A DNA stretch of 64,000 nucleotides from Candidatus Hermodarchaeum yapensis. Its GTDB lineage: Archaea; Asgardarchaeota; Hermodarchaeia; Hermodarchaeales; Hermodarchaeaceae. The stretch is from positions 32,001-96,000 of the forward strand of contig JAEOSK010000004.1 of the NCBI GenBank assembly GCA_016840405.1, in the 5' to 3' direction. Both the position numbers and the translations under genes were made by a program. Shown one piece after another: positions 56,541-63,532 of the stretch; within the stretch, counting starts at the first letter, position 1, and each line of letters starts with the position of its first letter. Below the pieces are notes generated by a model. The model was not told the DNA's origin, did not search any database, and was given only the letters and a program-made list of their open reading frames with translations.

Positions 56541-56774
56541 ACAATACCCTCAATTATACTGACGGCCCTTAACAAAGAATCAATTTAGAGAACTATTTCC
56601 ATTAAGTAAAAAGCATTTGCATTACAACACCAAATTAATTGATGCATATTCTCAAGAAGAACTGGATTTCTTTCATACAAACTTATGAATTTTGGCTTTT
56701 GGGAGCAAACCTTATCTAGGTTCGTCTGCTCAGACTAGAGTATTCAGGATTCTTCCCAATTTAAGGTGTGTTCA

Positions 56775-58283
56775 ATGGCACAAAATGCAGCAGATAAAGC
56801 CGCAAAATCTGAGGAATTGAAACGTCAAATCGAAGCGCTAACCACGGATCTCGTCGATGCCATTGACGTGTTAACCCGTGATTTACAGCGTAGCCTCCTC
56901 ATGTTAGCTGACCGGGTTGAGCAGCGTATGGAAGCCATTGGCTTCGGACGTCTTTCCGGACCGGTTGTGAACGATATTCAGGAGGGTGTAACAGCAGAGT
57001 CGAAGCGGTTTAGTGAGCAGGCCCGTGCTAAGATTCAAGAGATTACCCGGGCGAAGGCAGGGCTTGCTGGGGCAGCAGATGAACTCAGTGCTTTAGCATC
57101 GATGACGGAAGCAGAGCGAGAAGAACTGCGGAAGCGGCTGCAGGATGAGATTGCGGCATCACAGAAGACGCGTGAGGAACTGGAGAAAGAATTGGCAGAT
57201 GCGAAGGTGCGAGTTGCGGATTTGGAGAAGCGTTTGCAGTCGCAATCAACGCGTGATGCACGTCGTGTTGATAAGTTAAAGGAAACGAATAAGCAGCTAT
57301 CAGAATCGTTGAAGCAGGCTGAATCTGAGCTTATCAAAGTGCGGGAAGAGAGTCAGAAAGCATTGAGTGAACGTGATACTGCGGTGAGCCAAGTCAATGA
57401 GTTGAATGCAAAATTGGCATCAGCAACAGCAGCAGCCGAAACAGCATCGGCAACAGCAGCATCTTCGAAGAAGGAACTTGAAGCCCAAGTGAAGACATTA
57501 ACGGAGCAGTTAGAGCAAGCACAGCTAGCAGAGGCAGCTGCGAAGAAAGAGCTAGCAGAAAAAGTAACCACGGTTGAGGAGAAACTTCAGACATCAGAAC
57601 AGGAAGTTGTAGAGCTTCGACAATCGGTACAGAAGCTAGAAGAGGTCAAGACGCAAGCAGCACAGGATTCAGCATCCCTTGCGGAACTCCAACAGGAATT
57701 ATCTACTTCAAAAAGCCACCTTGAAACAGTGAATAAGCAGGTAGCCGATCTTGAAGCACAAGTTCAAACACTAACGACATTGAAGGAATCACAGGAGCAG
57801 AAGATAGCAGCTTTAGAAGAAGAGCAACTGGGTTTGAAGGAGCTTACCAAGGATCGTGAAGCGATTAGCAAGGATAAAGAAGATCTTGAAAGGCGGTTAG
57901 AGGAAGCCCTTGCTGAAATCGAGAAGATGAAAGAGGAGTATGCCCGGTTTGCTGAAATCCGGGATCGCCTGGAAATGTTGGAAACACGGGTTAGCATTCA
58001 GGATATTCTCTTACAGAAGAACCAGCAGTATCTTGTCTTGACAGCATTTGCCACCAAGATTGTGGAAGGCAAGTCTCGTGTGGGAGCCAAGGAGATTGGG
58101 TTTGCAGCCGCTTTGGGTATCTCGCTTGCAGCGTGGTTGGATACTCACTTTTTGGATCTACAAGAAGAAGGTGTAGTGTCCATTCATCGCACCGCTGGTC
58201 GTGGATTACCATCCGCAGATATCGAAGTGAGTAAGAAGGGTCAACAGCTTTTTGAAGAAGCAAAGCAGAAAGCTGCACTCTAG
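56775..58283 (+). CDS. Long coiled-coil protein with C-terminal winged-helix-like domain
   Basis: About 400 aa of heptad-rich E/K/L/A/Q sequence followed by a compact domain (LQEEGVVSI...VSKKG). Confidence 0.8.
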   Translation: MAQNAADKAAKSEELKRQIEALTTDLVDAIDVLTRDLQRSLLMLADRVEQRMEAIGFGRLSGPVVNDIQEGVTAESKRFSEQARAKIQEITRAKAGLAGAADELSALASMTEAEREELRKRLQDEIAASQKTREELEKELADAKVRVADLEKRLQSQSTRDARRVDKLKETNKQLSESLKQAESELIKVREESQKALSERDTAVSQVNELNAKLASATAAAETASATAASSKKELEAQVKTLTEQLEQAQLAEAAAKKELAEKVTTVEEKLQTSEQEVVELRQSVQKLEEVKTQAAQDSASLAELQQELSTSKSHLETVNKQVADLEAQVQTLTTLKESQEQKIAALEEEQLGLKELTKDREAISKDKEDLERRLEEALAEIEKMKEEYARFAEIRDRLEMLETRVSIQDILLQKNQQYLVLTAFATKIVEGKSRVGAKEIGFAAALGISLAAWLDTHFLDLQEEGVVSIHRTAGRGLPSADIEVSKKGQQLFEEAKQKAAL

Positions 58284-61027: not shown

Positions 61028-62236
61028 GTGGCATCCATCCCCAATGTCCTTCGTAAAGAAGGCGTCTTTAGCTTCGTTGTTCTTCTTTTCGTCTGTAGCA
61101 TAATTTGGGCTATGTTTTTGTCCATTTCGTGGGGTGCACATTTCGCACCGCGTATCGCGTTAGACGATGATACGATGCACAAGACGGTTATCTATTACAT
61201 GTTGAATGGTGAAGATTTCTATACAGCTTGGCGACATGCAGCACAGGCTACTGGAGATTTAGGTGATTTACGTATCTATCGGACGCCCCTCATCTTCTAT
61301 CCAGTCGTATTTCTTACTGGTTGGGCAGGTGCAGGCTTTATTTTTCCGTTAAGTGTACTTTGTGTTTGTGTCGCTGCATTGAATCTCATCCTTACATTTT
61401 GGACTACTCGGACCATTACGGGATCGGGTTGGGCAGGCTTGGCGGCAACGGGTGTTCAATATACCTTCTTTTTCAACGTCATTCCCTTATTCCAAATCTC
61501 CCTCTTTGCAATGCCCTTCCTCATTCTAACCATCTATTGGGCGTGGACTGACCGACCATGGTTGGCAGGAGGGTTCCTGGCCATGGCATTTCTCATCAAA
61601 GAAACCTTTGCCTTTGCTCTCCCTGCGATTGTTATCTTCTTCCTGATGAAACGACAAGGACGACACGCCCTGATCATCCTTGGGATTTTCATGGGAGCAT
61701 TGAGTATCTATTTTCTGCATACAATAATTGCACAACCAGTTTCAGGGCTCGAATTATTATTTGGTGCAAGTCTTCCAGTTTTCATTTCAAACCTAGCAGG
61801 ATTTCTCTGGTTTGGTTTTGGAGCCCTATACTACAATGTCTTGGCTCCGGCGACATTTGAGGGCTATTACCCCTCCAACCCAGTTCCTGTATTTATTCCC
61901 TTACCCGTCTTCTATTGCGTGTTGTGTCTTCAGATTATCTTGGTGTGGGGAACCTTCCTATGGTGGACCGTGAGATATATTCGGACCCGACAAACACCTC
62001 CCAAACCCCTTCTGGTAATGGCTCTAATAATGTGGATTGTACCCCTTGTATTTACAGCGACTACTACGGTCTGGGATTTTCCATTGTTCTGGATGGAGTA
62101 TGCCATTTGGCGATGGTTTGCCGCCTCCTATGTGGGATTCCAGTTACTCGTTGCATTAAGCTGGACTAATCTAAAACCTGCGATAAAAAGGACCTTGGCA
62201 GGACTTGTATCATCTACTCCCATTTTTTCTTCGTAA
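61028..62236 (+). CDS. GT-C fold membrane glycosyltransferase-like protein
   Basis: Acidic first loop (LDDD...GEDFY), YRTPL and LIKE motif; multiple TM segments. Confidence 0.65.
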   Translation: MASIPNVLRKEGVFSFVVLLFVCSIIWAMFLSISWGAHFAPRIALDDDTMHKTVIYYMLNGEDFYTAWRHAAQATGDLGDLRIYRTPLIFYPVVFLTGWAGAGFIFPLSVLCVCVAALNLILTFWTTRTITGSGWAGLAATGVQYTFFFNVIPLFQISLFAMPFLILTIYWAWTDRPWLAGGFLAMAFLIKETFAFALPAIVIFFLMKRQGRHALIILGIFMGALSIYFLHTIIAQPVSGLELLFGASLPVFISNLAGFLWFGFGALYYNVLAPATFEGYYPSNPVPVFIPLPVFYCVLCLQIILVWGTFLWWTVRYIRTRQTPPKPLLVMALIMWIVPLVFTATTTVWDFPLFWMEYAIWRWFAASYVGFQLLVALSWTNLKPAIKRTLAGLVSSTPIFSS

Positions 62237-62312
62237 TCGGTTACTCAAAGAAATGCTGAGATGTGCCCTCAATTACACAAGCAGTATAAAAAGCAACATA
62301 CGCCCCATACAA

Positions 62313-62533
62313 GGTTAGTTACCGGCAATCAGAATATTAGACCACCCTTGAGTTAATGCCTCTTGGTGGAGGGCGGTGTTGTTTATTCGGCACCTGCCCT
62401 CCGAACTGTCCGGTAACCGCAGCAGATGCTTGGGAAGCATCCGGGGAGTATTGATGACCCATCTAGACGGATGGCGAGAAGAAACAGGACCCCCATATTT
62501 GGGGAGCAGAGTGGGAGGGGGGATTCATTTTTT
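62313..62533 (+). ncRNA. Candidate structured non-coding RNA of unknown family
   Basis: Six stems in about 190 nt, with G-U pairs favouring the + strand. TATAAAAA at 62285 and a T6 tract at 62528-62533. Confidence 0.55.
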
Positions 62534-63418
62534 CATCGGTGGTTTCCGGATTTGCCATATACGGACCAAACCATCAGCTGATCCCACTGCCAGCCAACGC
62601 CTAGTTGGTGATACCGACACAGTATACACCCCTTTAACAGGTAGTTCATACTGCTTGTGAATCTCACCAGATCGAATGTCCCACATACGAACACCATAAT
62701 CGATGGCCGCAGCGACCTTCTTGTTGTCTGAAGTAAAATCGAGGTCACTGGCCCGAGATTCCAAAGATATTGAAAGATGTTCTTCCCAATCTTTTGTCGA
62801 CCGAATTTTCAGGGTTTGTTCATAGCCTATTGAGCCTAGCCACTCACCATCTGGGGAAAAAGTCACGGCGGAAACTGCAGTTTCGTGTCCTGTTATTTGT
62901 CTGATGAACTCACCGGAGGGAAACTCCCAGAGAAAAATATCATCGCCTAATCCCCCAGCCACTAAGAATTTTCCATCAGGTGAGAATGAAATGGAAGCAA
63001 TATTCCGTCTCAAATTCGTAAGTGTCAGCTGCTCTGTTCCAGATGTCACATCCCAAATCTTGACATGCCCATCATATGAACCAGAAGCAACGTATTCACC
63101 AGTCGGCGAAAATGCCACAGTTGCGACAGTCTTCCTATGTCCACTGAGCGTGTGTTCAAGCGTTCCAGAGGGATACTGCCAAATCTTTACAGTGGCATCT
63201 GTGGATCCCGTTGCCAAGAAGTCACCCTTAGCGGCTATTGCCACTGAATTCACACTGTTCGTATGTCCAAAAAGTGTGTTGAGTTGGTTCCAATCGTTTA
63301 CAGACCAAATTTGGGTGAGATTATCCATTCCACATGTGATTAGTACACTATTATCTAGAGAGAAGAGGATATCAGACACATGGCGAGTATGAGCATCGAT
63401 AACGATGGGCGGATCCAT
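62525..63418 (-). CDS. WD40 repeat beta-propeller protein
   Basis: About 7 GH...WD repeats (e.g. GHRKTVATVAFSPTGEYVASGSYDGHVKIWD). AGGTG SD before MDPP. Confidence 0.93.
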   Translation of the reverse strand: MDPPIVIDAHTRHVSDILFSLDNSVLITCGMDNLTQIWSVNDWNQLNTLFGHTNSVNSVAIAAKGDFLATGSTDATVKIWQYPSGTLEHTLSGHRKTVATVAFSPTGEYVASGSYDGHVKIWDVTSGTEQLTLTNLRRNIASISFSPDGKFLVAGGLGDDIFLWEFPSGEFIRQITGHETAVSAVTFSPDGEWLGSIGYEQTLKIRSTKDWEEHLSISLESRASDLDFTSDNKKVAAAIDYGVRMWDIRSGEIHKQYELPVKGVYTVSVSPTRRWLAVGSADGLVRIWQIRKPPMKK

Positions 63419-63532
63419 TTCGAACGACACCTTCTGAATTCTCTTTTTGGCTTGGAGAGAACGAAGATGTCTATATTGTAGTGTTAGACAGGTAAAAAGC
63501 CTAGCTAGTTGCAAACAAAGAGAACCTTGAAT

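Follow-up and report, generated by a model that had tools for sequence, protein, structure and literature searches.

A probable non-coding RNA gene with a kink-turn module and a predicted promoter of its own, conserved in the archaeal class Hermodarchaeia

The locus at 62318..62496 (+ strand) in the 64,000-nucleotide window, i.e. the whole stretch of Candidatus Hermodarchaeum yapensis DNA that was analyzed, is very probably a real non-coding RNA gene, as judged from sequence comparison with its relatives. The start of the RNA is predicted at 62316-62318 and its 3' end near 62495, both ends having been inferred from conservation and TATA spacing, and its conserved length is ~180 nt in genus 1 and ~150 nt in a sister genus. 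An initial annotation of the window had proposed a stand-alone structured RNA of an uncatalogued family at this place. That proposal is upheld by the TATA spacing, by covariation and by the lack of a match in Rfam, while three of its details were not: the conserved element is shorter than the ~220 nt suggested, the run of six T that follows it, and that might have been a terminator, belongs to a gene, and the 3' GGAGGG (~62514-19), suggested as a possible part of a switch or pseudoknot, falls outside of the conserved part. The letters of the window do contain all of the motifs that had been named, namely the 8-bp closing helix (62318-25/62410-17), ccacc/ggtgg (62342-46/62365-69), the long stem (62368-62402), the hairpins 62425-31/62435-41, 62459-64/62469-74 and 62491-95/62500-04, the TATA-like TATAAAAA (62285-92) and the T6 tract (62528-33).

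The gene lies between two converging neighbors, as had been noted and as the positions of the open reading frames in both genera bear out. Upstream is a GT87-like membrane protein gene (61028..62236, + strand; weak PF09594 match) that is syntenic in both genera. The convergent gene encodes a WD40 protein (62525..63514, - strand) and is adjacent to the RNA in genus 1 only. The sister genus lacks the WD40 gene and has, in its place, a geranylgeranyl-reductase gene converging on the RNA. That the downstream neighbor differs between genera argues against the RNA acting in cis on the WD40 gene. With no same-strand gene downstream in either genus, the earlier argument that the element is not a 5' riboswitch stands. 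Read in reverse complement, the T6 tract gives the final two Lys codons of the WD40 gene and, as it lies inside that reading frame, is not independent evidence for a terminator. On the - strand, a hairpin followed by a U-rich run (62489-62507) is found just 3' of the WD40 stop codon and may end the WD40 transcript in the window lineage. Elsewhere in the window, the gene at 56766-58283 encodes a long coiled-coil protein of 505 aa with weak Pfam matches only, and adjoins E1-like (ThiF/MoeB-type by eye) and cysteine desulfurase-like genes.

The search for homologs in Asgard genomes that had been called for recovered copies with conserved structure, amounting to 17 syntenic copies in two genera of Hermodarchaeia. 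Searching with the DNA sequence brought up 11 genomes of the genus that contain the element, with identities of 66-96%, tracing of the upstream gene led to two further copies in the sister genus, and metagenomes provided three additional distinct variants. The covariance model R1 was positive in 14 of the 19 genomes of the family, with one gene per genome; in the five negative genomes, the contig breaks off at this place or the genes on either side of it were not recovered. When an exact pattern of 23-24 bases was scanned over 185,579 genomes, it occurred in 11 places, ten of them in Candidatus Hermodarchaeota/Promethearchaeota MAGs and one in an 'uncultured archaeon', and a pattern scan of viral contigs was empty. 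Application of R1 to 150 genomes of the phylum gave no homolog in the ~130 other Asgard genomes; there, as in a search with looser filters in 40 non-family genomes, the matches were weak and of chance level, lacking a TATA box and apparently in coding DNA. No such RNA was found downstream of the geranylgeranyl-reductase orthologs of other Asgard groups, nor was a paralog found in the window genome. As found, the RNA therefore appears limited to Hermodarchaeia, with a very divergent homolog elsewhere being possible. One weak R1 match (L085; E 0.03) inside a coding region of genome G001 was treated as a chance match, which it probably is. This place (G001:C37:8861-8942), alanyl-tRNA-synthetase-like by eye, resembles hairpin P4 over 24 nt, including a stem with compensated pairs, and was seen in G001 only.

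In the predicted promoter, the TATA box (62285..62292, + strand) shows 98% identity, and in 17/17 copies 30-33 nt separate it from where the closing helix begins, so that the TATA-like element pointed out in the initial annotation is conserved in all of the relatives. Archaeal transcription is expected to start at such a distance downstream of a TATA box; sigma-70 promoter scans are not applicable to archaea. Directly upstream, and spanning the BRE position, is the motif TGTG...TACAC.AGC (62262..62284, + strand), with a mean identity of 81% in ten genus copies and a related form in the sister genus. For the same ten copies, mean identity is 35% just upstream of this motif, 98% in the TATA box, 54% in the spacer, 76% in the 5' domain of the RNA and 87% from the linker through to box C, to be compared with a baseline of 31% at the 4-fold sites of the neighboring gene. 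Since the TATA box is kept at a fixed spacing while the spacer has drifted to 54%, the pattern of conservation argues that the RNA is transcribed from its own promoter. A matrix built from the genus copies revealed no second TATA-linked copy of the upstream motif in the genome, and the motif may be the site of a dedicated transcription factor. As for the strand, the helices of the alignment contain 28 G-U cells vs 16 A-C cells, an excess that would mildly point to the + strand, and the kink-turn described below is readable on the + strand only.

Folding energy by itself is weak evidence for the element, and it is the comparison with relatives that makes the predicted structure real. The folding z-score is -1.23 for the originally flagged interval (62285-62533) and -2.36 for the core (62318-62496), while two homologs scored -0.74 and -1.63. 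Over 14 distinct full copies, 94% of the helix cells are paired and nine pairs are altered on both sides; none of 500 shuffles reached the real covariation score, nor did any of the slid controls, which were 37-59% paired. The helices thus covary in relatives, the outcome by which the initial annotation had proposed to judge the structure. It should be noted, however, that these controls overstate the support, as the sequences are related, as the structure was partly derived from them and as alignment A4 was fitted to the model. A MAFFT alignment gave a similar result to A4, and the alignment base is small for all of these values (~14-17 related sequences).

The 5' domain (62318..62417, + strand) consists of the closing helix P1 (62318-25/62410-17), the open junction that it encloses, and stem P3. 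Both the closing helix and the long stem of the initial annotation are kept and covary in homologs, with three pairs changed on both sides and 98% pairing for P1, and two such pairs and 96% pairing for P3. The junction contains the near-invariant motif GCCUCUUGG (62358..62366, + strand; alignments A1, A2 and A4), a second copy of which (CUCUUGG) is found in the loop of an upstream hairpin in most genus-1 copies. Stem P3 is followed by the start of the 3' junction strand (together 62368..62403, + strand), which is CUCCUUUU in relatives and CUCCGAACU in the window copy. The smaller ccacc/ggtgg helix did not survive the comparison, as 2 nt of it also belong to the long stem and it occurs in the window lineage only, with relatives forming a different hairpin. 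The linker RCAGCA and hairpin P4 follow (62419..62441, + strand). P4 has a 5-bp stem, a conserved loop that contains UGGGAA, two pairs changed on both sides and 97% pairing. Homologs confirm these inner 5 bp of the hairpin proposed at 62425-41, whose outer pairs are not among the confirmed part.

The 3' module (62443..62493, + strand) comprises a terminal stem, formed by a G-run (62443-46) and a C-run (62490-93) and present in the predicted fold of the window copy, a kink-turn and a variable cap hairpin (62459-74). The hairpin previously placed at 62491-504 is not conserved, as in relatives it is the C-run that closes the terminal stem with the G-run. The kink-turn consists of the bulge GAU (62453-55), GA (62456-57) and the partner GA (62476-77, positions read off the alignments), with the box C-like UUGAUGA at 62451-57. 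A C-stem, a 3-nt bulge, tandem G-A/A-G pairs and an NC-stem can all be recognized, the partner GA being conserved. GAUGA is invariant in 17/17 copies, and the C-stem is retained as CG, UG or UA pairs, with a compensatory change in copy L091. The UGAUGA element noticed earlier as k-turn-like is thus kept throughout, its C-stem conserved by alternative pairs. L7Ae, Nop5 and a Cbf5-type domain are encoded in the window genome, and by analogy with known kink-turns, this one is probably bound by L7Ae. In Sulfolobus acidocaldarius, L7Ae binds sRNAs for which a function is unassigned (Daume et al. 2017, PMC5539422).

The window copy is, by comparison with the others, a drifted member of its family. 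Its lineage has no looped copy of the junction motif, the second junction strand lacks its U-run, and the kink-turn C-stem has only 2 bp (U-G and U-A), after which comes an insertion rich in purines. In other lineages, the gene has been split by an insertion sequence (IS). The insertion site, between GG and AG at 62445..62447 (+ strand), is empty in the window and filled in two close relatives (G005, i.e. L008, and L088) and a distant one (G009, i.e. L011), where both halves of the RNA are still recognizable. The inserted module, which is the right end of a tnpB-type IS or its omega-RNA, lies between P4 and the kink-turn, has a TATA-like motif of its own and matched nothing in Rfam. It corresponds to the 3' end of tnpB elements; ~ten copies of the module occur in the window genome, after tnpB-like ends on contigs C6, C10, C17, C20 and C76 and as stand-alone modules with no tnpB upstream on contigs C18, C30, C45, C54 and C77. 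The module terminates in GG, like IS607-family elements, which end in GG and insert at GG without duplication (PMC6188088). For the same-site insertions in two distant lineages, a hot spot is possible, as is one old insertion followed by precise excisions.

Known RNA classes do not account for the element. In Rfam 15, to which the initial annotation had deferred, three divergent copies (that of the window, the consensus-like one of G004 and that of G018 in the sister genus) matched no known family, with nothing above 18 bits or below an E of 0.09 on the RNA. RNase P, SRP and 5S identities, already doubted, were rejected, as the genome's own copies were found on other contigs (C17, C24 and C11, respectively). 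ARAGORN found no tRNA or tmRNA at the locus; for tmRNA, moreover, SmpB was not found in the genome and the frame is broken across copies. A box C/D sRNA was rejected, as one C-like and one degenerate D-like motif surround a hairpin and no C'/D' pair is present, and so was a C/D guide, as the sequence preceding the D-like motif is itself base-paired, varies between copies (52% identity) and yielded no common duplex. By these sequence features, and those considered below, the RNA would fail membership in the C/D, H/ACA, tmRNA and riboswitch families. As a separate observation, the 16S gene of the window genome spans 3594 nt (C71:619-4212) and the 23S gene is broken up into several parts (C17/C60, L054-L060). 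The rRNA introns are many, some long with ORF-like content and some of ~30 nt, while the 16S gene of G016 is nearly uninterrupted.

The function that we tentatively prefer, giving it somewhat less than an even chance, is that of an L7Ae-bound, trans-acting RNA that pairs with the ribosome-binding sites of mRNAs. From known kink-turn biology, L7Ae would bind the 3' kink-turn and so protect and organize the RNA. The 5' domain might then keep two conserved C/U-rich strands open, and these could conceivably pair in trans with Shine-Dalgarno regions, so that translation of the mRNAs concerned would be repressed or tuned. Whenever the L7Ae-stabilized terminal stem is unformed, the second strand may be masked by the internal G-run, in a helix that shows no covariation. 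The window genome does use Shine-Dalgarno sites, with GGAGG ~6x and AAGGAG ~8x enriched before starts, the two junction strands are complementary to GAGG and AAGGAG, and the locus has the promoter of its own and the intergenic position expected of an anti-Shine-Dalgarno sRNA. Against such pairing, neither the U-run of the second strand nor the looped first copy of the motif is left in the window copy. No conserved mRNA target was found among exact 9-mer sites of one genome, with one candidate compared across the family. This candidate, a small GTPase gene (C3), has a site that overlaps its ribosome-binding site but exists in the window lineage only. Complements of the seed are neither enriched nor depleted genome-wide.

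The lack of a base-pairing target also speaks for the main rival, an RNA serving as structure, scaffold or protein sponge, in which the CUCUUGG repeats and the UGGGAA loop would be the protein-binding sites of a class-specific ribonucleoprotein. Such a role is rather unlikely, although most genus-1 copies carry the motif in duplicate and display it in the loop of a hairpin, and loop and linker are conserved (87%) beyond the needs of pairing. No partner gene is linked to the RNA, adjacency to WD40 is confined to one genus, and Ro60/TROVE, the lack of which also led us to reject a Y RNA, was not found in the 86% complete genome. With a C'/D-like kink-turn placed after a long 5' domain, the layout recalls, in turn, the 5'-extended box C/D RNAs, and in a genome with L7Ae, Nop5 and heavily interrupted rRNA genes, a U3/U8-like chaperone or guide for the folding or processing of pre-rRNA could be imagined. 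We consider this improbable, as antisense comparison of the conserved strands with 16S, 23S, 5S and flanks (the flanking pre-rRNA in few genomes) gave no long, consistent or common duplex, and as 23S helix 89, the sarcin-ricin loop, 5S loop D and the 16S central pseudoknot gave short or lineage-specific matches only. The RNA is, furthermore, restricted to one class, and the IS module splits its gene in three genomes. Reading P1, the junction and P3 as the pseudouridylation pocket of a eukaryote-like H/ACA guide, with RCAGCA as the H box, would agree with the Cbf5-type domain and with the position of RCAGCA after P1, 15-16 nt from a possible pocket top, where it fits ANANNA in some of the copies. 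It is nonetheless very unlikely: a terminal ACA is absent, P3 carries no K-turn or K-loop above the pocket (the kink-turn sits in the separate 3' module), the 3' pocket strand is altered in the window lineage, and the best target common to 12 guides scored 9.8, within the 8.7-11.5 of shuffled targets, for a target set of 20 tRNA calls (incomplete) and rRNA partly from relatives. A composite of these two, i.e. a snoRNA-like Asgard RNA that joins a eukaryote-type H/ACA-like hairpin, an H box and a C'/D-type kink-turn and acts on rRNA or other stable RNA, as U3, U8 and scaRNAs do in eukaryotes, is a quite improbable reading.

Coding was considered for the 32-codon ORF at 62356-62454, which would make the RNA peptide-coding or dual in function. 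An ATG or TTG occupies the same column in all genus-1 copies, and the 3' ten codons have 4 synonymous vs 2 non-synonymous changes. The frame, however, is open from end to end in only 8/15 copies, G007 has a stop at codon 5, the sister genus has no start and the 5' part shows 5 synonymous vs 11 non-synonymous changes, so that we give this reading very little probability. Even less probable is a ligand- or tRNA-sensing switch, in which the G-run would toggle between the terminal stem and the C/U tract, and UGGN would pair with the NCCA of tRNA in a T-box-like manner. The alternative helix of C/U tract and G-run is pairable in 88% of the cells, UGG occurs in nearly all copies and tRNA genes of the window genome encode CCA ends, but the helix shows no covariation, a T-box stem I or specifier loop was not found, Rfam gave no match and no same-strand gene lies downstream to be controlled. 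Finally, the modest folding z-scores, and the fact that our reading is drawn from sequence, would allow for an element that acts at the level of DNA, or for a 3' UTR signal belonging to one of the flanking genes, with no separate RNA. The compensatory changes, which include G-U pairs, the kink-turn readable on one strand only, the TATA box at start-site spacing and the change of downstream neighbor between genera make this highly unlikely and agree with the separate RNA gene that we favor.

Hardly any non-coding RNAs have been described from Asgard archaea, and our literature search found nothing on Hermodarchaeota RNA structure or on surveys of Asgard structured RNAs. A class-wide, single-copy RNA is a candidate for a new Rfam family and a marker for Hermodarchaeia, and offers a concrete case for the use of L7Ae by Asgard archaea outside of C/D and H/ACA guides. 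For now, the importance of the RNA is limited by its occurrence in one class only, by the tolerance of drift and IS insertion in some lineages and by a function that is only proposed.

Among known systems, the U3 and U8 snoRNAs have a long 5' domain before a C'/D-like kink-turn in a terminal stem, a layout that the Hermodarchaeia RNA shares, although it has no B/C motif, no rRNA complementarity and no Rfam similarity to them. Like H/ACA guides (PMC7991803), it presents a stem, a bubble and a stem, followed by an ANANNA-like linker, but by the criteria of the same work it lacks an above-chance target, a pocket K-turn and a terminal ACA. In archaeal box C/D sRNAs, the C box is RUGAUGA and the D box is CUGA (PMC5539422); the Hermodarchaeia RNA resembles these in its kink-turn of box C-like YYGAUGA and D-like NGA and in the presence of L7Ae and Nop5, but differs in having a single kink-turn, no C'/D', a hairpin in the guide position and three times the length. 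With sRNA162 of Methanosarcina mazei (PMC3510493), it shares an intergenic position, its own promoter, a size of 150-200 nt and C/U-rich single strands able to mask ribosome-binding sites; unlike sRNA162, it carries a kink-turn and its pairing targets are only proposed, with similarity between the two compared through Rfam alone. The closest likeness in kind is to the L7Ae-bound sRNAs of Sulfolobus acidocaldarius (PMC5539422), stand-alone archaeal kink-turn sRNAs that are neither C/D nor H/ACA guides, from which the RNA differs in its class-wide multi-domain fold and its extended promoter motif. The RNA thus falls among the orphan archaeal kink-turn sRNAs (PMC5539422), a known kind, of which it represents an uncatalogued family.
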